In this document: positions 11,052 to 45,901 of the stretch, piece after piece
Numbering within the stretch: the stretch's first letter is position 1
Layout: every line of letters begins with the position of its first letter
From: Escherichia coli
Lineage (GTDB): Bacteria; Pseudomonadota; Gammaproteobacteria; Enterobacterales; Enterobacteriaceae
Direction: 5' to 3' (one strand)
Assembly: GCF_050920415.1 (NCBI RefSeq)
Contig: NZ_CP169309.1
DNA: 64,000 bases
Notes under the pieces: generated by a model
What the model was told of the DNA's origin: nothing
The model's input: only the letters and a program-made list of their open reading frames with translations
Databases searched by the model: none
Made by a program: the position numbers and the translations under genes

Positions 11052-12086
11052 TCAATATTTGATATACGCGTCCTGCACTTTGCCGCCAGCGATAGCCAAC
11101 ATTGCTTTCTGCGCGAATTCTTCGGGAATGCCTTGGGCTATCAGATCTGCGATTACTCTGCTGTTAACGGTACGGCGATGCTCTTTATCTGCAGCTCGGC
11201 GCGATTCTTCGTCGGCGATACGCTTCTGTTCGTCAAGGCGGGCTTTTTCTGCCGCCTCTTGGCGTCGGCGTTCCTCGGCAACGGCTTCTTCTTTTTCGCG
11301 TCGTGCACGCTGCTCTGCTTCAATTCGCTGACGTTCTGCTACTTCAGCACGTGCTTTTTCTTCCGCCGCCAGGCGTTCCGCAGCCTCAATTTCAGCTTTC
11401 GCTTTTTGTTCAGCTTCGAGCCTGGCCTGTTCAGCAGCTTCCCGGCGGATATTCTCTTCTCGCTCAATGCGCGCTTTTTCCTCCGCTTCTTTGCGAAGTC
11501 GCTCCAGCTCAGCGGCTTCATGCTCGCGTTTTTGAGCTACTGCGAGTGATTCTTCCAGTTTCTGGATGGTTGAATCCTTGGCTACTCCAGCTTCTGCTGC
11601 GTACTCCTGCCAACTTTCATCAAGTGCTACTGATTTAGCCTCTTGAATTCGTTCCTGAATATCAGATGATGGCAAGTAGTTTCCGGAGAGATCGATCACG
11701 TCAGCTAGTGCTCGCAAATTTGTCAGGCGTTGTTGCAGTGCTTCAGTGCGTAATTTCTCCGCATTTTCCCACTCGGTGAGTGGGCGGCGTACTTCATCAC
11801 GAAGCCGATCGCATTCGGTTACGAAGCGTCGTAACTCTGCTTCAACTACTTTCGGCTGTTCTTTCAGGCGTTTCAGATAATCACGTCCTGGTTTTTCTAC
11901 CGCTGTTTTACTTCTTGAAACCTTCGCAGCCAGAGATGCAATGCGCTTTCTGCCTTTGTCTGTGCTAATGTCAGGCACTTCATTAACACCTTCACGGATC
12001 TGCTCGAGAAACTTTTCCAGCCCTTTTTCAACGTAAATTCTTGGTGCCATGTCTGGTGTGATTTCGATGATTGATAATTCACTCAT
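11052..12086 (-). CDS. coiled-coil phage protein (E/A/R/K-rich C-terminal half)
   Basis: 344 aa, long EAxxRAxxE repeats; function unknown. Confidence 0.6.
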   Translation of the reverse strand: MSELSIIEITPDMAPRIYVEKGLEKFLEQIREGVNEVPDISTDKGRKRIASLAAKVSRSKTAVEKPGRDYLKRLKEQPKVVEAELRRFVTECDRLRDEVRRPLTEWENAEKLRTEALQQRLTNLRALADVIDLSGNYLPSSDIQERIQEAKSVALDESWQEYAAEAGVAKDSTIQKLEESLAVAQKREHEAAELERLRKEAEEKARIEREENIRREAAEQARLEAEQKAKAEIEAAERLAAEEKARAEVAERQRIEAEQRARREKEEAVAEERRRQEAAEKARLDEQKRIADEESRRAADKEHRRTVNSRVIADLIAQGIPEEFAQKAMLAIAGGKVQDAYIKY

Positions 12087-12244
12087 TTGCTAACCTCCTC
12101 CCATATCTCGTTATCGTTGGCCACATCGCGAGCTTCTTTGCTGACGAAAGCCCACTTAATGCCTTCCTGTAAGGTGCGGAACTTCCAGCTCATGAATCCG
12201 CATGCAGTAACGCAGTACCAACCGTTGATGATTTTCCACTGCAT
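12083..12244 (-). CDS. small Cys-containing protein (53 aa), first gene of leftward early operon
   Basis: MQWKIINGWYCVTACGFMSW...; GAGGT RBS; stop overlaps next ATG; not in ORF track (<60 aa). Confidence 0.4.
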   Translation of the reverse strand: MQWKIINGWYCVTACGFMSWKFRTLQEGIKWAFVSKEARDVANDNEIWEEVSK

Positions 12245-12263
12245 AACTTGTTACCTCGGTCTG

Positions 12264-12278
12264 TTACCGTTGAGGTAA
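12264..12278. promoter_or_regulatory. operator-like palindrome TTACC GTTGA GGTAA (OL-type)
   Basis: Upstream of leftward early operon; extra TTACC half-site at 12251-12255. Confidence 0.5.
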
Positions 12279-12325
12279 TAATTATGCGTATCTGGTTTGA
12301 TGTCAATAGATATGAGTTAAAAAAA

Positions 12326-12340
12326 TTACCCGTTAGGTAA
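12326..12340. promoter_or_regulatory. operator-like palindrome TTACC CGTTA GGTAA (OL-type)
   Basis: Between repressor terminator and leftward early operon. Confidence 0.5.
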
Positions 12341-12347
12341 TCGAATA

Positions 12348-12377
12348 GGCAATAAAAAAGCCGCCATAAGGCGGCTT
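12348..12377 (-). terminator. rho-independent terminator after repressor gene
   Basis: aagccgcc-ttat-ggcggctt hairpin then TTTTTTATT on minus strand. Confidence 0.7.
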
Positions 12378-12397
12378 ACTTACTGAAAAATATGATT

Positions 12398-12982
12398 TTA
12401 TTGTTTGTTTTTTTCGTTCTGGTTGATGACAAATTCAATGTAACTTTCGATCTTTGCCTTCTCTGTTTCAGGTAACAATGCGTAGCGCGAGCGGTCATAG
12501 TTGATAGTTGCAGGGTCATGCGGATGAATCAGTAGTTCATATCCGTGACGCCCGAATGCAGATGCAACATTCTCCAGGGTGGAAATGGAAACGCTGACCT
12601 CATTGTTTAACAGGCGGCTGATTGTCACCTGGGCGACGCCGGATGCGCGGTGAAGTTTTCCCTGTGTTGAAAGGTCGCGGCTTTCGCTCATCCAGCGTTC
12701 CAGGTTGTGAGCCGCCAGCTGACCAATGTCGCTTGGGCCGACAGGCTGAAAACCTTCCTGAGAAAGCGAGCGATCGATATCAAGCCAGTTACGGGGTTTA
12801 TTGGCGGCAGCTTCAATTTTTCGCGCAACCTGGTCGCCGATAACCTTCTTGCCAAGAGCCCAGCGGTTTACCAGATTTGCCTGAGTTCCAAGTTTTTCTG
12901 CCATCCGCGTCTGAACACCATTGAATTCACGGTCGATCAAGTCGTTGAGATTTTGCCTGCGGACGTCCTGGATACTTTTCAT
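12398..12982 (-). CDS. phage repressor, tandem HTH_XRE domains (CI-like, no peptidase domain)
   Basis: 194 aa; HTH at GVQTRMAEKLGTQANLVNRW and at HRASGVAQVTISRLLNNEVSVSISTLENVA; divergent from Cro-like gene. Confidence 0.65.
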   Translation of the reverse strand: MKSIQDVRRQNLNDLIDREFNGVQTRMAEKLGTQANLVNRWALGKKVIGDQVARKIEAAANKPRNWLDIDRSLSQEGFQPVGPSDIGQLAAHNLERWMSESRDLSTQGKLHRASGVAQVTISRLLNNEVSVSISTLENVASAFGRHGYELLIHPHDPATINYDRSRYALLPETEKAKIESYIEFVINQNEKNKQ

Positions 12983-13037
12983 TTTCTGGAAAATCGCCTC
13001 ATATATGAATCAGTAGATGATTCAATTTAAAGCAATA

Positions 13038-13052
13038 TTACCCAACAGGTAA
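13038..13052. promoter_or_regulatory. operator O1 (TTACC CAACA GGTAA)
   Basis: In repressor/cro divergent intergenic region. Confidence 0.55.
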
Positions 13053-13054
13053 AT

Positions 13055-13069
13055 GCACCTCATAGGTAA
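13055..13069. promoter_or_regulatory. operator O2 (GCACC TCATA GGTAA)
   Basis: 2-bp gap from O1. Confidence 0.5.
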
Positions 13070-13085
13070 CTATCCTTGATTTTTG

Positions 13086-13100
13086 TTACCTTATGGGTGA
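13086..13100. promoter_or_regulatory. operator O3 (TTACC TTATG GGTGA)
   Basis: ~35 bp upstream of cro-like start. Confidence 0.5.
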
Positions 13101-13136
13101 ATATTTATTATCTGAAATAAATATCAGGCAATAGCT

Positions 13137-13367
13137 ATGAGCGATAACGGACATTTCGATTTCAAAAAGCACTGGCTTGCACTTACTCCGGATGAGCGTG
13201 AAGCCTTCGCACAGGAAGCCGGAACGACGAGTCACTATATCCAGACTCACTTAACAGGTAAGCGAAAAATGCCAGGTAAAGTATTGATGAATGGGCTTTT
13301 TAAAGCCTGTAAAACAAGACAATGGCTGCGCTCAAAAGCAGAACTGGCATACTTCTTCTACTCATGA
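13137..13367 (+). CDS. Cro/YdaS-like HTH regulator
   Basis: 76 aa, divergent from repressor; ...TTSHYIQTHLTGKRKMP... HTH pattern. Confidence 0.6.
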   Translation: MSDNGHFDFKKHWLALTPDEREAFAQEAGTTSHYIQTHLTGKRKMPGKVLMNGLFKACKTRQWLRSKAELAYFFYS

Positions 13368-13388
13368 TATCCAGCTACAACCCTCTGT

Positions 13389-13412
13389 AGACCGCCATCC
13401 GGCGGTCTTTTC
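13389..13412 (+). terminator. rho-independent terminator after cro-like gene
   Basis: gaccgcc-atcc-ggcggtc then TTTTCAT. Confidence 0.65.
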
Positions 13413-13421
13413 ATATCTATT

Positions 13422-13436
13422 CGTACCTTAAAGGTA
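13422..13436. promoter_or_regulatory. operator-like palindrome GTACC TTAAA GGTAA ahead of replication operon
   Basis: Immediately after cro terminator. Confidence 0.5.
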
Positions 13437-13517
13437 ATAAAAAACCAAATCTGGTTGATCTTTTTTTTGTGTCAGCACAAAATAACCGTAATCCCAATAC
13501 TAATAACAGGGCTTACC

Positions 13518-13718
13518 ATGGAAATCATTACACGTATTGATGCCGCAAAGCGCGGACTTAAACGCTACTACACCGGAAAACCATGTAAGCACGGACATGA
13601 CAGTGAACGCTGGGTTTACAACGGACACTGTGTTGAGTGCACCATGGAATCAAACCGTCGCATTAGGGCAGAGATTAAGCAGATCATGATTAATTCCTCC
13701 CCACAACATTCAAGCTGA
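13518..13718 (+). CDS. small zinc-finger protein
   Basis: 66 aa from internal ATG; KPCKHGHDSERWVYNGHCVEC Cys/His cluster. Confidence 0.45.
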   Translation: MEIITRIDAAKRGLKRYYTGKPCKHGHDSERWVYNGHCVECTMESNRRIRAEIKQIMINSSPQHSS

Positions 13719-13733
13719 TAGCGGAGATTAATC

Positions 13734-14549
13734 ATGAGCAGACATGCAACAGATTGGGCCTGGGAGACAGATCCAGGCAGCTCATCATTAAAGCTCATAC
13801 TGCTCTCGATGGCTGACAGAGCCGATGAATATAACCTCTGCTACCCCAGCATAGAACGCCTCGTTAAAGACACTTGCCTGAATAAAAAAACCGTGCAGGC
13901 CGGGCTTATATCGCTCATGAAAATGGGGCTTATTTCAGATACCGGAGAGAGAAAGGGAGCGACGAAAAGAGTGCGGGTTTTCTCTCTTAATATAACCAAA
14001 AACGGGAACATTAAAGGCAACCGGGAAGGGAGTAATGAACCCGAAAACGGAAATGTTACCGAAAACGGGAATATACCCAAAAACGGGATGTTGAATGATC
14101 CCAAAAACGGGATGTTGAATGATCCCAAAAACGGGATCCAGAACCAGTCATATAACCAGTCATTTAACCAAGAGAGGGGGAGCAGGACAAAAACCGGGGA
14201 TTCTGTGCCTCATGACCCCGGCGCAAACAACGCCGTGATGAATAACTTTGTTCCTCCTGGTGGGCCAGGGCAATTAGGCAAATTTGTCATGCATGAACAA
14301 TGGCAACCATCAGATGACTTTCTTCGGAAAAGCTCATTGCAGGGAATCTACCTGGACAGTCTGCCAACGGCACAGGAACTTGCAGAGTTCAGAATTTACT
14401 GGATGGCTGAGGGTAAGGCATACCATCAGGCACAGTGGGAGCAGAAGCTGGCAAGGCGGCTGCAGATTAGCAGACAGAAGCAATCAACATTACCTGATAA
14501 CAACGTTCCGCACTGGAACAGCCCTGAAGCGTGGGAGGATTTCTTGTGA
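13734..14549 (+). CDS. replication initiator (lambda O-like role) with internal iterons
   Basis: 271 aa; N-terminal HTH-like domain; repeat-encoded ENGN/PKNG peptide stretch; directly upstream of P-like gene. Confidence 0.6.
   Translation: MSRHATDWAWETDPGSSSLKLILLSMADRADEYNLCYPSIERLVKDTCLNKKTVQAGLISLMKMGLISDTGERKGATKRVRVFSLNITKNGNIKGNREGSNEPENGNVTENGNIPKNGMLNDPKNGMLNDPKNGIQNQSYNQSFNQERGSRTKTGDSVPHDPGANNAVMNNFVPPGGPGQLGKFVMHEQWQPSDDFLRKSSLQGIYLDSLPTAQELAEFRIYWMAEGKAYHQAQWEQKLARRLQISRQKQSTLPDNNVPHWNSPEAWEDFL
13998..14141. repeat. iteron array (AAAACGGGA core, ~6 copies incl. two exact 24-bp tandem units at 14076-14099 and 14100-14123); putative ori
   Basis: Direct repeats read in sequence inside initiator gene. 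Confidence 0.6.
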
Positions 14550-15336: not shown

Positions 15337-15357
15337 GCGCGATAGCGCATTTTTTTA
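15337..15357 (+). terminator. weak terminator after replication genes
   Basis: short GC hairpin then TTTTTTT. Confidence 0.35.
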
Positions 15358-15368
15358 CGTCTCAATAA

Positions 15369-15383
15369 TTACCTATAAGGTAA
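15369..15383. promoter_or_regulatory. operator-like palindrome TTACC TATAA GGTAA
   Basis: Intergenic, upstream of 15449 operon. Confidence 0.5.
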
Positions 15384-15430: not shown

Positions 15431-15445
15431 TTACCTCAGAGGTAA
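15431..15445. promoter_or_regulatory. operator-like palindrome TTACC TCAGA GGTAA overlapping RBS of next gene
   Basis: Ends 4 bp before ATG at 15449. Confidence 0.5.
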
Positions 15446-15448
15446 ATC

Positions 15449-15796
15449 ATGAGAAAACAGATACAGGCTCTTGGTCGACTCAAAACAGGCCAGATGAACA
15501 AAACAGAATCTGCGTATTGCCAGCACCTTGAGCAGCGTAAACGTGCAGGGGAAATCGCCTGGTATCGATTCGAGGGTATCAAGCTGCGGTTAGCTGACAA
15601 CACGTTCTATACGCCCGATTTCGCTGTGATGCTCGCCACCGGCGAGATGGAGCTGCACGAAGTGAAAGGGGGATTCTGGACCGATGACGCCAGAGTGAAA
15701 ACCAAAGTCGCCGCAGATCAGTATCCGTTCCGAATCATCGGGGTAACGGTTAAGCCAAAGAAAGCAGGTGGTGGCTGGAACATCGAAGAGTTCTGA
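15449..15796 (+). CDS. small PD-(D/E)XK-fold nuclease-like protein (VRR-NUC/resolvase-like)
   Basis: 115 aa; PDFAV...ELHEVKGG matches D...ExK signature. Confidence 0.45.
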   Translation: MRKQIQALGRLKTGQMNKTESAYCQHLEQRKRAGEIAWYRFEGIKLRLADNTFYTPDFAVMLATGEMELHEVKGGFWTDDARVKTKVAADQYPFRIIGVTVKPKKAGGGWNIEEF

Positions 15797-18020: not shown

Positions 18021-18368
18021 GTGCGATTCGTGGCTAAATCCCCCGCAGAACGCAAAGCCGCGCAGCGCGCTCGGCAGTCCGCCGCCGGTGAGCGCAAAAT
18101 TGAACTGGTGCTGGATAAGCAGGAGCAGGAAATGCTGGAGCGTAACTGTGCCGCCCGTCGCCCTGGTCGTGCGCCGTATGAAATGAGCGAATACATCGCG
18201 TTACTGATCCGCCAGGATGATGCACGCGTGCGCGGGCGTATAAAATCGATCAGCAGAAAACGTTGCGGTAAGTGCGGCGAGAGAGTTCCAGTTAATTCAT
18301 GCCCGTGTAATGGTGACTCGCAATGCTGGGTGACTAAAGGCTGGCATGAAACGAAATTAATAGTGTGA
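18021..18368 (+). CDS. hypothetical Cys-rich protein (start uncertain, GTG 18021 or 18030)
   Basis: ORF ending in palindrome; RKRCGKCGERVPVNSCPCNG cluster. Confidence 0.4.
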   Translation: MRFVAKSPAERKAAQRARQSAAGERKIELVLDKQEQEMLERNCAARRPGRAPYEMSEYIALLIRQDDARVRGRIKSISRKRCGKCGERVPVNSCPCNGDSQCWVTKGWHETKLIV

Positions 18369-18417: not shown

Positions 18418-18443
18418 GCCGCCAACTATGGCGGCTTTATTTT
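18418..18443 (+). terminator. rho-independent terminator before packaging operon
   Basis: gccgcc-aactat-ggcggc then TTTATTTT. Confidence 0.65.
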
Positions 18444-18454
18444 GCATGGTACTA

Positions 18455-18469
18455 TTACCACAACGGTAA
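18455..18469. promoter_or_regulatory. operator-like palindrome TTACC ACAAC GGTAA upstream of terS
   Basis: Flanked by partial half-sites (CTATTACCAC repeated). Confidence 0.5.
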
Positions 18470-18486
18470 CTATTACCACGGTGGTT

Positions 18487-19083
18487 ATGATGCCTGCTGA
18501 ACCTAAAACCTATAAACGCAAATCAACGCAATTTAAGCCGCTCACAGCAATGCAGGAGGCTTATTGCCAGTCATACATCAAAACGCCTGAAAACCAGACT
18601 CAGGCAGCGATTAACGCAGGATTCTCCCCAAACACAGCGGCAGTTAAAGCCAGTGTCATGATGCGCGATGAACGCATTCAGAAACGGATTGCCGAGTTGA
18701 TGGAGGAGCGCAACAAACGAATGCGCGTCAGTGCTGATTACGTTCTCATGCGCCTGGTGGAGATCGACCAGATGGACGTGATCGACATCCTCAACGACGA
18801 TGGGAGCCTTAAACCAATCCGTGAGTGGCCGAAAATCTGGCGCACTACGCTTAGTGGCTTTGATCTGTCGTCGACCATCATGAACATGAACGAGGATTCG
18901 ATAGAGACAATCCTCAAAAAAATTAAATGGCCTGACAAGGTGAAGAACCTTGAGCTGATTGGTAAGCATGTTGATGTCAACGCGTTCAAAGAACGTCTGG
19001 ATGTTAATGTGAATGTGACAATTGCTGATCGCATAGCAGCAGCCAGGAAGCGACTCAAAGAACGTCAGGATGGTAATCAGTGA
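18487..19083 (+). CDS. terminase small subunit
   Basis: 198 aa directly upstream of and overlapping large terminase; HTH-like N-terminus. Confidence 0.6.
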   Translation: MMPAEPKTYKRKSTQFKPLTAMQEAYCQSYIKTPENQTQAAINAGFSPNTAAVKASVMMRDERIQKRIAELMEERNKRMRVSADYVLMRLVEIDQMDVIDILNDDGSLKPIREWPKIWRTTLSGFDLSSTIMNMNEDSIETILKKIKWPDKVKNLELIGKHVDVNAFKERLDVNVNVTIADRIAAARKRLKERQDGNQ

Positions 19084-20645: not shown

Positions 20646-21017
20646 TTATTGCTCGCTTAACTTCTGCTTCAGCAAGTAACCTTCAAGCATCCAGATTTTG
20701 TTTACAGCATTCTGCCGGGCAATCTTCCGACCAATTTCCGCATCAAAGTTTTCCGGGCTTGCACAGGCGCTCTCTCCGGTGACGGTGAAGCCATTGCGCA
20801 GCACCAGAACGCAGAACGTCAGCAGAGAAAGTGATTCGTGCGGCTGGTAGTTTACCTCTCCGCCAGTATGTTTCGCTTTTATGGCTACGCCAAAGATACC
20901 ATCTTCTGCTGTGAAATATGCCTCCTGAGCAATAATACTCTCGATATGGTCTGGCGTAACGCGCGGCGCGGCTAAACCTTTAGCCTGAATTTCAGATTCA
21001 ATGTCTTTGTCACTCAT
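20646..21017 (-). CDS. hypothetical protein (opposite-strand moron between terminase and tRNA)
   Basis: 123 aa MSDKDIESEIQAKGLAAPRVTPDHI...; family not recognised. Confidence 0.5.
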   Translation of the reverse strand: MSDKDIESEIQAKGLAAPRVTPDHIESIIAQEAYFTAEDGIFGVAIKAKHTGGEVNYQPHESLSLLTFCVLVLRNGFTVTGESACASPENFDAEIGRKIARQNAVNKIWMLEGYLLKQKLSEQ

Positions 21018-21032
21018 AGTCTAATCTCACCT

Positions 21033-21060
21033 TAAAAAAATGCCCGGCGAACCGGGCGAA
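21033..21060 (-). terminator. terminator for tRNA transcript
   Basis: minus-strand cgcccgg-ttcg-ccgggc hairpin then TTTTTTT. Confidence 0.55.
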
Positions 21061-21220
21061 CTGGAAGCAATGAGTTATGCCTTCCGTGGCTGTACTGGTT
21101 TACAGCATGAAGCCATCGCAATGGCGTCCTGCTGTAAAAAGGGCGGTGATAGTCCTTCAAGGGAAACCATCACCGCCAAGCCCCTGGAACTTCTGGCATC
21201 ACGGTCCTTAGGCGTGATTC

Positions 21221-21297
21221 TGGCGTGGCATGCAGGATTCGAACCTGCGACCGACCGCTTAGAAGGCGGTTGCTCTGTCCAACTGAGCTAATGCCAC
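21221..21297 (-). tRNA. tRNA-Arg (anticodon UCU)
   Basis: Minus-strand cloverleaf: acceptor GTGGCAT/ATGCCAC, anticodon loop CUUCUAA, T-arm GGTTCGAATCC, 3' CCA. Confidence 0.85.
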
Positions 21298-21619
21298 AAC
21301 GCTGAGAGCACTTAGCCTGTTAAGGCGCCACACTTTGTCGCGGCTCCATAAATGCTCTCATCGTTGCACCCTCGTCTCTTCCGAGGCGTCACACCGAATC
21401 GCCGGGATGGTGAATCCCCGTGCGCGGAATAAAACCGCTCGACTTGCACATTCCGGCTACCTGGTTCGTTTGCCCGAGCAAGGGAGGGTGCCCATTAAAC
21501 GTATCCAGACCGCTATCGGCGCATGTGCCATACGCCGTACTGCTCAAAATAAAATCTCACTCCACCTGTTCAATTTAACGACAAGCCAGTCAGGTTAATA
21601 ACAGGAATGCACTCTCTGC

Positions 21620-21634
21620 TTACCTGAAAGGTAA
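21620..21634. promoter_or_regulatory. operator-like palindrome TTACC TGAAA GGTAA ahead of virion operon
   Basis: ~90 bp upstream of ORF 21725. Confidence 0.5.
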
Positions 21635-21724
21635 TAATTCGTGCGTTAAATGTCAACTGTCTACGATAAATAAATCATATGTGGTTAAATTGGTAATAAT
21701 TTAATTGCGTACGGAGTCATTGAT

Positions 21725-39209: not shown

Positions 39210-39233
39210 GGCCGCTTTCGCGGCCTTTTCTTT
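39210..39233 (+). terminator. rho-independent terminator after virion-protein operon
   Basis: ggccgc-tttc-gcggcc then TTTTCTTT. Confidence 0.7.
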
Positions 39234-39507
39234 ATGTGGTTTGTTTTCGTAGTTGTTCGGCACAATAGTCGAGATGTGTTTGCAGATCCTGCATAGACAT
39301 CTGTGAGCTGGTGACGTAGTTAATCAGTGCAGTCAGTTCGGCAAGTGGGCCATCGACATTAAATCCATCCTTATCGAGATCCCGGAGTAATTTCATCAAG
39401 TGCGATCCTTCCACCAGTGACCTGACGCCTCCCGGCGTGTGAATCCTTTCGGTAAATCCCTCTTCCAGTGGATAGTGATACTGCTGCATCTTATCTTCTC
39501 CATGCAA
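39232..39507 (-). CDS. hypothetical protein (opposite-strand moron before tail fibre)
   Basis: 91 aa (or 85 from second ATG); family not recognised. Confidence 0.4.
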   Translation of the reverse strand: MHGEDKMQQYHYPLEEGFTERIHTPGGVRSLVEGSHLMKLLRDLDKDGFNVDGPLAELTALINYVTSSQMSMQDLQTHLDYCAEQLRKQTT

Positions 39508-39565
39508 TAACTGTATGTTTATACAGTATCAAATAATTTGTTTGCTATCCAGCACGTTTTGCGAA

Positions 39566-39580
39566 TCACCTGAAAGGTAA
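39566..39580. promoter_or_regulatory. operator-like palindrome TCACC TGAAA GGTAA
   Basis: Divergent region between moron and tail fibre; extra half-site near 39623. Confidence 0.5.
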
Positions 39581-39684
39581 TATCTGCTCACATTAACACT
39601 CTTTCCATCCATATATGGTTTTTCAGGTAATAGAATAACCAGATATGCGGCGCAACGGGTGCTGCGACTATCTGGAGATTTAAC

Positions 39685-43871: not shown

Positions 43872-43886
43872 TCACCTTTAGGGTAA
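43872..43886. promoter_or_regulatory. operator-like palindrome TCACC TTTAG GGTAA
   Basis: Divergent region between acyltransferase and lysis cassette. Confidence 0.5.
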
Positions 43887-45884: not shown

Positions 45885-45901
45885 ATTGAGTGGGAATGAT
45901 T
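45885..45901. repeat. attR core (ATTGAGTGGGAATGATT)
   Basis: Exact copy of 6047-6063. Confidence 0.65.

Follow-up and report, generated by a model that had tools for sequence, protein, structure and literature searches.

Immunity region of an intact phiV10-type prophage in guaA of Escherichia coli, with a probable SPC32H-type switch of repressor, operators and LexA-controlled antirepressor

The window analyzed here, a stretch of 64,000 nucleotides from Escherichia coli contig NZ_CP169309.1 (assembly GCF_050920415.1), contains a complete 39.8-kb phiV10-like (Uetakevirus) prophage inserted in the 3' end of guaA. The region at 12264-13436 is very probably the immunity region of this intact prophage, operating a switch of the SPC32H type in which a repressor, Rep, acts on dispersed operators and is countered by an antirepressor, Ant, under the control of LexA. 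The repressor and antirepressor are homologous to a solved Rep-Ant complex, a LexA box precedes ant, and the terminators and a set of conserved operators are present. The region is the standard immunity region of phiV10/epsilon15-like phages and not an unusual variant, and it is already annotated and partly characterized in these phages. It is real but ordinary, because the switch has already been solved in the related Salmonella phage SPC32H.

The gene guaA corresponds to an open reading frame at 4484-6061. A 17-bp att core (ATTGAGTGGGAATGATT), an exact repeat of the published phiV10/ZX5 core, lies at the 3' end of guaA and marks the left prophage end (attL, 6047-6063, plus strand), and an exact second copy marks the right end (attR, 45885-45901, plus strand). 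Integration at this end of guaA has been published for phages of the phiV10/ZX5 type (PMC9782041). The prophage has both att cores and its full set of genes, and a reading of it as a defective remnant was therefore rejected. The nucleotide identity of the region to phiV10, phiv142-3, ZX5 and others is 97-99 %, and phiV10 (DQ126339) matched the 1.8-kb query 12000-13800 with 98.7 % identity over 95 % of its length. Of 5426 complete E. coli genomes, 539 (about 10 %) carry the immunity region, and in these rep is annotated merely as a "helix-turn-helix domain-containing protein". An Rfam scan of the prophage gave tRNA alone, and therefore no known regulatory RNA is involved.

The repressor gene, rep (12398-12982, minus strand), encodes a protein of 194 aa that is 100 % identical to phiV10 p40 and, by homology, non-cleavable. 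The original prediction had described a tandem helix-turn-helix (HTH) repressor without a peptidase domain, and a DNA-binding fold was borne out by Pfam, which gave an HTH_3 match in the second domain (aa 106-147, E = 4.9e-5) and weaker HTH matches in the N-terminal part at aa 21-67 (YdaS_toxin, 4.7e-3; HTH_3, 0.14). The absence of a peptidase domain was confirmed as well; the C-terminal Peptidase_S24 domain that is the autocleavage feature of lambda CI/LexA-like repressors, with its Ser-Lys dyad and Ala-Gly cleavage site, had no Pfam match in Rep even at an independent E <= 10, and the C-terminal half aligns instead to the dimerization/tetramerization region of SPC32H Rep. A phmmer search of the PDB returned SPC32H Rep (5D50_A) as a full-length match (E = 4e-42, residues 1-190 aligned to 2-197). 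The AF2 model of Rep consists of two helical HTH-like bundles with a disordered linker between them, and its best structural matches were 5D50/5D4Z, followed by XRE-type HTH domains, with SinR-SinI (1b0n_A) as a structural neighbor. Identity to SPC32H Rep is 42 % overall; the DNA-binding domain, at 52 %, is better conserved than the dimerization and Ant-binding domains, at 34-42 %.

In SPC32H Rep the order of domains is DBD, MDD, and then a C-terminal tetramerization/Ant-binding domain, the N-terminal domain alone being the DNA-binding one and the middle HTH-like domain serving dimerization (PMC9986798). The tetramerization and Ant-binding domain comprises the C-terminal 45 residues (PMC9986798, PMC9638917) and shares the tetramerization fold of Rco and p53 (PMC9986798). 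The protein is a tetramer on DNA, which is bound by pairs of N-terminal domains, and tetrameric Ant and two Rep dimers bind each other (PMC9638917); the structural repression mechanism "has not been extensively characterized" (PMC9986798). The tandem HTH description of the E. coli repressor stands at the level of fold and profile, but the second domain of the solved homologue is described as a dimerization domain and not as a second reader of DNA. A Rep in which each HTH reads one half-site, so that a monomer acts as a pseudo-dimer, would agree with the HTH profile matches in both halves, the stronger Pfam match lying in the second domain, and with the two bundles and disordered linker of the AF2 model. 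We regard this as very unlikely, because the half-sites are identical inverted repeats, fitting two copies of one domain, and because N36, R40 and W41 of the N-terminal recognition helix are invariant across 22 homologues of Rep with identities as low as 42 %, in parallel with the invariant operator half-site, whereas the equivalent helix of the second domain keeps R123 alone. The division of labor in the solved homologue (PMC9986798), and the holding of DNA by N-terminal domain pairs of a tetramer (PMC9638917), speak against it in the same way.

Divergent from rep, as had been foreseen, is a gene for a Cro-like small regulator of 76 aa (13137-13367, plus strand), which matches phrog_35, "transcriptional repressor" (E = 5.6e-13), is 76 % identical to SPC32H_042, and had no significant match in a Pfam scan. 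The three operators expected between the two genes were found at their predicted positions. O1 (13038-13052), a perfect site, overlaps the -35 and spacer of a putative rep promoter read from the sequence (TTTACC-17-TTAAAT, minus strand); O2 (GCACCtcataGGTAA, 13055-13069), 17 bp from O1, has two mismatches here and is perfect at the conserved position in SPC32H, BUCT711 and epsilon15; and O3 (13086-13100, one mismatch) overlaps the predicted rightward promoter of the Cro-like gene (TTGTTA-17-TATTAT, 13083-13111, plus strand). Here and below, promoter assignments are consensus matches, and promoter-like sites were fewer in the scan than in shuffles. An intrinsic terminator of the rep transcript (12358-12377, minus strand; 8-bp GC-rich stem and T-run; dG -21.1 kcal/mol, z -5.9) and a second one after the Cro-like gene (13389-13408, plus strand; dG -15.0 kcal/mol, z -5.7) are both annotated in phiV10, and a further terminator closes the early-right region (18418-18435, plus strand; dG -16.2 kcal/mol, z -5.2). 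Both of the rep/cro terminators had been predicted, as had two operators beyond the first (12264 and 12326) and one after the second, ahead of the replication genes (13423), and the reading of a terminator-insulated layout with operator-guarded promoters after each terminator is supported. The two terminators and six nearby operators are kept in phiV10, Tyrion, BUCT711, SPC32H and epsilon15, except that in the Salmonella phages the post-cro site is degenerate.

The operator core, ATTACC-N5-GGTAAT, is present in 14 copies in the prophage, all of them intergenic and distributed over nine loci, and five related phages share the positions and spacings of the loci (17, 18 and 62 bp, with 63 bp once in BUCT711). 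The window has 16 matches to TTACC-N5-GGTAA with up to one mismatch, where 1.0 is expected and 100 shuffles gave 4 at most. The most over-represented 5-mer palindrome in four genomes was TTACC with a 5-nt spacer, and in SPC32H all 10 of 10 perfect sites are intergenic, where intergenic sequence makes up 6.8 % of the genome (P = 2e-12). Matches outside the prophage at 51403, 60545 and 63924 (one mismatch each) were treated as chance, because about one is expected. Within the prophage, occupancy is uncertain at 6197, 13055, 13086, 13423, 39566 and 43872, because these sites carry one or two mismatches. A literature search for Uetakevirus operator studies gave none besides the ZX5 paper.

The leftmost of these sites is operator-like (TTACCttaaaGGTAT, 6197-6211, one mismatch), has a terminator (6108-6131) on one side and the start of the integrase gene (6254) on the other, and recurs with the identical mismatch upstream of int in SPC32H, Tyrion, BUCT711 and epsilon15. 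The early-left unit has a promoter-proximal operator (12264-12278), a perfect TTACC-N5-GGTAA abutting the -10 of a predicted leftward promoter (TTGACA-17-AATTAT, 12306-12278, minus strand), and a promoter-distal operator (12326-12340) upstream of the -35, 62 bp from the proximal one, a spacing conserved in five phages (63 bp in BUCT711). The replication operon is preceded by a single operator (GTACC..GGTAA, 13423-13437, one mismatch), which is conserved in Tyrion and BUCT711. The post-replication pair begins with a perfect operator (15369-15383) after a weak terminator that is annotated in phiV10 (dG -8.4 kcal/mol), and its downstream member (15431-15445) contains the Shine-Dalgarno sequence of a DUF1064/resolvase-like gene (ATG at 15449); the 62 bp between the two are identical in all five phages. 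Two operators 18 bp apart (18455-18487) are located directly upstream of the terminase small-subunit gene, are also found in Tyrion and epsilon15, and correspond to a repressor site in the epsilon15 record. The operator at 21620-21634 abuts the -10 of a predicted leftward promoter (21663-21634) that faces a tRNA-Arg gene and a p03-like gene, and is conserved in SPC32H, Tyrion, BUCT711 and epsilon15. In the gap between ant and the tailspike gene, an operator with one mismatch (TCACC..GGTAA, 39566-39580) is perfect in SPC32H, Tyrion, BUCT711 and epsilon15, and is annotated as a repressor site in epsilon15. The last site (TCACC..GGTAA, 43872-43886) is operator-like, separates the lysis cassette from a divergent O-antigen acyltransferase-like gene, and has the identical variant in SPC32H and Tyrion and a perfect form in epsilon15.

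The idea that divergent Reps (42-78 % identity) would go with different operators failed, since five genomes all use TTACC-N5-GGTAA; covariation was therefore unusable, and the parallel invariance of the recognition helix was relied on instead. In lambdoid phages operators are as a rule shared by the repressor and Cro, and the Cro-like protein is well conserved here (76 %), as are the sites, so that they might be bound mainly by this protein, or by a late regulator, for example the phrog_536 protein (18021-18368). We hold this to be highly improbable. Clusters of the sites flank rep on either side and cover its promoter, the epsilon15 curators labelled them repressor sites, and the invariant recognition helix of Rep parallels the invariant half-site. 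In ZX5, overexpression of the identical Rep left no free phage and lowered the transcripts of endolysin and holin by over 99.9 %, so that lysis genes far from the immunity region were silenced (PMC9782041). Rep is accordingly preferred as the main protein bound to the sites; the Cro-like protein might bind them too, alongside Rep or in competition with it.

The original prediction, noting the missing autocleavage domain, had also proposed induction through an antirepressor or another route, which it did not identify. An antirepressor is the route supported here, and its probable gene lies about 26 kb from rep. The 85-aa product of the gene at 39232-39489 (minus strand) matches PDB 5D50_E, "Anti-repressor protein" (E = 5e-48), and is 89 % identical to SPC32H Ant (86 aa) and 95 % identical to phiV10 p24. 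Its position and strand, between tail genes and tailspike, are those of SPC32H ant (SPC32H_020), and the interval holds just this gene and a 46-aa membrane ORF. A Pfam scan of Ant gave no significant family, its sequence aligns only to the last ~50 positions of PHROG 1760 (E = 5e-7), an antirepressor family 232 positions long, and most database entries of its homologues carry the label "hypothetical protein". A predicted LexA (SOS) box, CTGTATGTTTATACAG, occupies 39511-39526, upstream of ant and 21 bp from its start codon, with 17 of 20 matches to the consensus TACTGTATATATATACAGTA as read from the sequence, and CTGT-N8-ACAG is kept upstream of ant in all five aligned phages. A second CTGT-N8-ACAG at 21090-21105 (CTGTACTGGTTTACAG) was not counted as a LexA box, because its AT-less spacer is poor and a total of three such matches in the window does not exceed chance (4 of 100 shuffles). 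In the SPC32H studies attributed to Kim & Ryu in 2013 and Kim et al. in 2016, LexA reportedly binds the ant promoter while Rep stays uncleaved, and the Rep-Ant-LexA mechanism is said to have been established there both genetically and structurally.

A lambda-like layout, with divergent repressor and cro and three operators, would also suit induction of the lambda type, by RecA-stimulated self-cleavage of Rep or another direct SOS route, the gene at 39232-39489 then being irrelevant; this is exceedingly unlikely, given that Peptidase_S24 is absent from Rep at any threshold, that the fold and sequence of Rep match those of the non-cleaved SPC32H protein, and that the prophage carries a conserved homologue of Ant together with a LexA box. 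It is just as hard to credit that the inducer is a Bro-N/KilAC-type "anti-repressor" (ZX5 ORF4, phiV10 p23) and not the 85-aa protein. In favor of such an inducer, ZX5 ORF4 overexpression gave fewer lysogens and lower repressor transcripts (PMC9782041), and phiV10 p23 carries the annotation "putative anti-immunity protein". Against it, ORF4 had a modest effect, the prophage lacks a gene of this kind, the tail-tailspike interval holding just ant and the 46-aa membrane ORF and PHROG scans of the early genes giving no Bro-type protein, and the partner in the solved Rep complex is the 86-aa Ant.

By analogy with SPC32H, the switch with Rep, operators and a LexA-controlled Ant would work as follows. 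During lysogeny Rep would be made from its own promoter, on a transcript ending at the 12358-12377 terminator, and its N-terminal HTH domain would bind the palindromic ATTACC-N5-GGTAAT operators, each of the two N-terminal domain pairs of a presumed Rep tetramer being able to hold one operator. Operators lie on or beside the predicted promoters of what would be essentially every unit, namely early-left, cro, replication, middle genes and terminase, as well as the tRNA unit, ant/tailspike, the oac/lysis region and int. With intrinsic terminators between most transcription units, Rep would silence each unit directly. As Rep has no autocleavage domain, the inducer would be ant, 26 kb away, with the LexA box in its promoter region. 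DNA damage would remove LexA, Ant would be made, and it would bind the C-terminal part of Rep and release it from DNA. Operator occupancy and the oligomeric state of Rep are here taken from the SPC32H literature or from position, and the same sources suggest the control of ant by LexA and the action of Ant on a phiV10-type Rep. Ant is 89-91 % identical to its SPC32H counterpart but Rep only 42 %, and cognate recognition between the two proteins is an assumption.

Three further points may be new to description. First, with about 14 operators at nine conserved loci, Rep may be a genome-wide silencer, and the two promoter-bracketing pairs at exactly 62 bp, or about six helical turns, are suggestive of one tetramer clamping a micro-loop around the promoter. 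Second, ant may be under a double lock, the Rep operator at 39566 being placed, on the strand of ant, upstream of the LexA box at a distance of 40-55 bp. Third, operator core, recognition helix and Ant are nearly constant, against a divergence to 42 % identity in the remainder of Rep, and this would predict cross-immunity and cross-induction among the Uetakeviruses of E. coli, Salmonella, Klebsiella and Enterobacter. Taken jointly, a genome-wide silencer with 62-bp looping, a double lock on ant and cross-immunity/cross-induction are a tentative proposal that we would sooner doubt than accept. A LexA-controlled ant would explain the induction of these O-antigen-modifying prophages by DNA-damaging antibiotics. 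The analysis adds little new biology, as the GenBank entries of phiV10 and epsilon15 already list the repressor, the terminators and dispersed repressor sites; it corrects the impression, given by the ZX5 paper and several annotations, that a Bro-N protein is the antirepressor of the phiV10-type family.

Among known systems, SinR/SinI of B. subtilis and Rco/Rap of pLS20 also combine an XRE-type DNA-binding domain at the N-terminus and C-terminal oligomerization with a small-protein antagonist, but this is an analogy of architecture alone, with no close sequence homology and different biological contexts. The prophage resembles lambda in its divergent repressor and cro, in the three operators between them, and in the operators on the leftward early promoter, and differs from it in a Rep without an S24 domain, in operators over about nine loci that include late, int and lysis regions, and in terminator-bounded units carrying their own operators; a non-exhaustive search of the prophage gave no N or Q antiterminator. 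The GfoR/GfhR-GfoA/GfhA systems of Gifsy-1/-3 and CI-Tum of phage 186 pair a non-cleavable repressor with a small antirepressor outside the immunity region that LexA controls directly (PMC3121763). The logic proposed here is identical, and the Ant system is not filed under the Tum/GfoA family; the repressor architecture differs, no dinI-like gene is next to ant, and Ant has no detectable relationship to Tum/GfoA as judged from Pfam/PHROG profiles.

In epsilon15 (AY150271.2), seven dispersed sites of the gp38 repressor are annotated and coincide with loci described here: before terminase, before gp3, in the gap between gp19 and the tailspike gene, three to the left of rep, and one post-replication. 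The record is without the rep-cro trio, the int site and the holin-proximal site, all of which were found in epsilon15 by the scan, and labels gp19 (Ant) hypothetical. The p40/p41 region of phiV10 has a Rep of 100 % identity, with terminators and a two-HTH repressor annotated in the record, which calls p24 "hypothetical" and annotates neither operators nor a LexA box. An extra Bro-N gene, p23, is absent from the E. coli prophage, which has in turn an extra 344-aa early-left gene (11052-12086) compared with phiV10 that is shared with phiv142-3. The SPC32H system differs in its host, Salmonella against E. coli here, in a Rep of only 42 % identity, in a third, distal early-left operator that it has in common with epsilon15 and that the E. 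coli prophage lacks, and in the central 8 nt of the LexA box, which here are the reverse complement of the SPC32H version. It nevertheless corresponds closely, with full-length homology of Rep (E = 4e-42), 89 % identity of Ant, like gene positions and strands, a LexA box upstream of ant, and a shared operator core with the same nine loci and spacings.

The 17-bp sequence ATTGAGTGGGAATGATT occurs exactly twice in the window, at 6047-6063, where it overlaps the 3' end of guaA (ORF 4484-6061; NCBIfam GMP synthase, E = 5.5e-251), and at 45885-45901. This att core and this insertion point have been published for phages phiV10, epsilon15 and vB_EcoP_ZX5 (PMC9782041). The immunity region at 12264-13436 is part of a prophage, the 39.8 kb between the two copies. 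The gene order across the prophage is that of the genus Uetakevirus, running from the integrase through an early operon that reads leftward (methylase, RecT, exonuclease), the repressor, a Cro-like gene, replication genes and middle genes to the genes for terminase, head and tail, the tailspike, a gene resembling O-antigen acyltransferases and the lysis cassette. A 1.8-kb query (12000-13800 of the window) matched phage phiv142-3 over its full length at 97.6% identity and phiV10 over 95% of the query at 98.7% identity, and 539 of the 5426 complete E. coli genomes carry the region 12264-13436 at 95% identity or higher. The early-left operon also encodes a 344-aa protein (11052-12086, minus strand; phrog_1376, unknown function) whose central region is long, charged (E/R/K/A-rich) and repeat-like; the start of its gene lies just beyond the phiV10-aligned stretch and is spanned by the phiv142-3 alignment.

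The repressor, Rep, is encoded by the ORF at 12398-12982 on the minus strand. The Pfam scan gave HTH_3 at residues 106-147 (E = 4.9e-5), weaker HTH-type matches at residues 21-67 and no Peptidase_S24 even at E<=10, in agreement with the original prediction of a 194-aa repressor with two HTH motifs and no peptidase domain, and PHROG transcriptional-repressor profiles matched both halves of the protein. Rep is 100% identical to phiV10 p40, entered in the phiV10 GenBank record as 'putative transcriptional repressor, two helix-turn-helix motifs'. Searched against PDB sequences, it matched 5D50 chain A, the repressor of the Salmonella phage SPC32H, over the full length (E = 4e-42, 42% identity). 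In the AlphaFold model (mean pLDDT 80) a disordered linker connects two helical HTH-like bundles, and the C-terminal segment that comes after them finishes in a long helix; the structures closest to the model are 5D50 and 5D4Z, with XRE-type HTH domains (among them SinR, C.Esp1396I and DdrO) next. SPC32H Rep is a tetramer on DNA, in which the palindrome-reading domain pairs are drawn from different dimers, and tetrameric antirepressor (Ant) binds two Rep dimers (PMC9638917). The predicted second HTH is thus genuine as a fold; summaries of the SPC32H structure give it a dimerising and not an operator-reading role in the characterised homologue. An alignment of 22 homologues, down to 42% identity, agrees with the N-terminal domain as the operator reader: N36, R40 and W41 are invariant in its recognition helix (residues 35-43), whereas R123 alone is invariant in the equivalent helix of the middle domain. 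When the identical protein was overexpressed in ZX5, transcripts for endolysin and holin fell by >99.9% and free phage was abolished (PMC9782041).

Induction through an antirepressor or another route had been proposed without a gene being located, and an Ant homologue was found about 26 kb away as an 85-aa ORF (39232-39489, minus strand) in the gap that separates the last tail gene from the tailspike. It matched 5D50 chain E, 'Anti-repressor protein' (E = 5e-48), in the PDB and is 89% identical to SPC32H Ant, with the same position and strand. A LexA-box sequence, CTGTATGTTTATACAG, lies at 39511-39526, 21 bp upstream of the ant start codon; counting the flanking bases, 17 of 20 positions agree with the LexA consensus of E. 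coli, and the CTGT-N8-ACAG frame upstream of ant is conserved in phiV10, SPC32H, Tyrion and BUCT711. SPC32H Rep reportedly stays uncleaved in the SOS response and is inactivated by Ant, while LexA is said to repress ant at a site overlapping the ant promoter, and a LexA-box point mutation reportedly makes the sister phage SPC32N constitutively lytic. With a Rep homologue, an Ant homologue and a LexA box, the window holds all three sequence components of the SPC32H switch. No Bro-N type 'anti-repressor' (as phiV10 p23, Tyrion gp20 or ZX5 ORF4) was found in the prophage. The 'anti-repressor' label is attached to the Bro-N protein in phiV10 (p23), Tyrion (gp20) and ZX5 (ORF4; PMC9782041), and phiV10 (p24), epsilon15 (gp19) and most NCBI entries list the homologue of the structurally proven Ant as 'hypothetical protein'; the Tyrion annotation truncates this homologue to a 54-aa ORF, although the full 86-aa frame is open.

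The window has 16 matches to the operator TTACC-N5-GGTAA at no more than one mismatch, where 1.0 would be expected and the highest count among 100 shuffles was 4; they include 12264, 12326, 13038, 13086 and 13423. All three palindromes predicted between rep and cro (O1, O2 and O3, at 13038, 13055 and 13086) were recovered, O2 with two mismatches, as were those predicted left of the rep terminator (12264, 12326) and after the cro terminator (13423). The O2 position, 17 bp from O1, is conserved, and the equivalent site is perfect in SPC32H, BUCT711 and epsilon15. The prophage carries 14 operator sites, all intergenic; the others are upstream of int (6197), after the replication genes (15369, 15431), before the terminase (18455, 18473), before a leftward tRNA unit (21620), in the ant-tailspike gap (39566) and in the acyltransferase-lysis gap (43872). 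Counting 5-mer palindromes without bias in this prophage, SPC32H, Tyrion and BUCT711 brought out a single outlier, TTACC spaced by 5 nt (7-10 perfect copies, against <=2 for any other), and in SPC32H 10/10 perfect sites fall within the intergenic 6.8% of the genome (binomial P = 2e-12). Pooled, the 46 perfect sites give ATTACC-N5-GGTAAT as a 17-bp consensus whose centre is A/T-rich. Five phages share the loci and the spacings: the early-left pair is 62 bp apart (63 bp in BUCT711), the post-replication pair exactly 62 bp apart in 5/5 phages, the rep-cro trio spaced by 17 bp and then 30-31 bp, and the pair before the terminase 18 bp apart. The dispersed layout was already known, the epsilon15 GenBank record having seven dispersed 'protein_bind: repressor, lysogeny' features at corresponding loci. 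The phased 62-bp pairs may form promoter micro-loops, each held by one Rep tetramer, and the conserved operator beside the ant promoter may provide a double lock of Rep plus LexA.

The Cro-like gene predicted to diverge from the repressor is the 76-aa ORF at 13137-13367 (plus strand), whose product matched PHROG 35 'transcriptional repressor' (E = 5.6e-13) and no Pfam family in the Pfam scan. Terminators expected after each gene were located at 12358-12377 (minus strand; -21.1 kcal/mol) and 13389-13408 (plus strand; -15.0 kcal/mol), with folding z-scores near -5.8; both are already annotated in the phiV10 record. Most operator clusters have an intrinsic terminator ahead of them, at 6108-6131, 12358-12377, 13389-13408, ~15337-15352 (weak) or 18418-18435, so the proposed terminator-insulated, operator-guarded units are borne out, in a pattern reaching far past the immunity region. 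A predicted early-left promoter, near-consensus TTGACA-17-AATTAT (12306..12278, minus strand), lies between operators 12264 and 12326.

Several further features were noted. The small terminase subunit ORF, called mechanically, starts at TTG 18409, as in phiV10 p01 (224 aa), which would put the strong terminator 18418-18435 and two operators within coding sequence; the ATG pair 18490/18493, giving a protein sized like the SPC32H and epsilon15 homologues, is the likelier start. The last early-right gene (18021-18368, plus strand; PHROG 536 'transcriptional regulator', E = 4.6e-54) corresponds in position to epsilon15 gp49, last early-right gene, labelled 'similar to N15 gp46', and is a candidate late-gene activator because it is placed just ahead of the terminator and operator pair preceding the terminase. 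Between the terminase and portal genes, the leftward unit (20646-21663, minus strand) has a promoter-like site (21663..21634) abutting operator 21620-21634, an untranslated stretch of about 320 nt, tRNA-Arg(TCT) at 21221-21297, stem-loops at 21142-21177 and 21042-21057, and a 123-aa gene (20646-21017; phrog_322, unknown function); the arrangement is conserved in SPC32H and epsilon15, whose record annotates an RNase III site there. The gene for the replication initiator (13734-14549) contains three tandem repeat arrays side by side at 14039-14170 (18 bp x2.8; 24 bp x2.6, 100% identity; 12 bp x2.4); they encode the repeated peptide PKNGMLND and resemble origin iterons lying inside an O-like initiator gene, the arrangement found in lambda. 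In the ant-tailspike gap, a block ATTCTATTACC...AACCATATATG (~39590-39640), conserved in 5/5 phages, has a lone TTACC half-site adjoining a TAGAAT -10-like hexamer on the tailspike strand and may be part of the tailspike promoter.

The analysis established homology, motifs, positions and conservation, and from SPC32H we infer DNA occupancy, a Rep tetramer, a LexA response and Rep-Ant contact in this variant. In the lysogen, rep would be transcribed leftward from a predicted TTTACC-17-TTAAAT promoter overlapping O1, its transcript ending ahead of the early-left promoter. Rep tetramers would occupy the operators, of which O3 overlaps the predicted cro promoter; 62-bp pairs flank the putative early-left and middle promoters, and the downstream operator of the middle pair contains the ribosome-binding site of the next gene. 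Because terminators separate the units and each has its own operators, Rep would hold each off directly. On DNA damage, LexA would become inactive, ant would be expressed, and Ant would bind the C-terminal region of Rep and free Rep from the DNA. Between this prophage and SPC32H/epsilon15, Ant is 87-91% identical and Rep 42-43% (34-42% in the dimerising and Ant-binding domains); between E. coli and Salmonella phages the Cro-like protein is 76% identical, and the operator core and Rep recognition helix are unchanged. Such a pattern is a hint that phages of the genus may cross-induce or be cross-immune, or that recombination exchanges rep alleles.

Among known systems, the region is not of the lambda CI / S24 family, since Rep has no S24 domain. 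The 186 Tum and Gifsy GfoA systems work in the same way, through a LexA-controlled antirepressor outside the immunity region (PMC3121763), and no evidence of homology to either was found. By sequence, on the homology of Rep, the homology and synteny of Ant and the presence of the LexA box, the region is assigned to the SPC32H-type Rep/Ant switch, a system already characterised.
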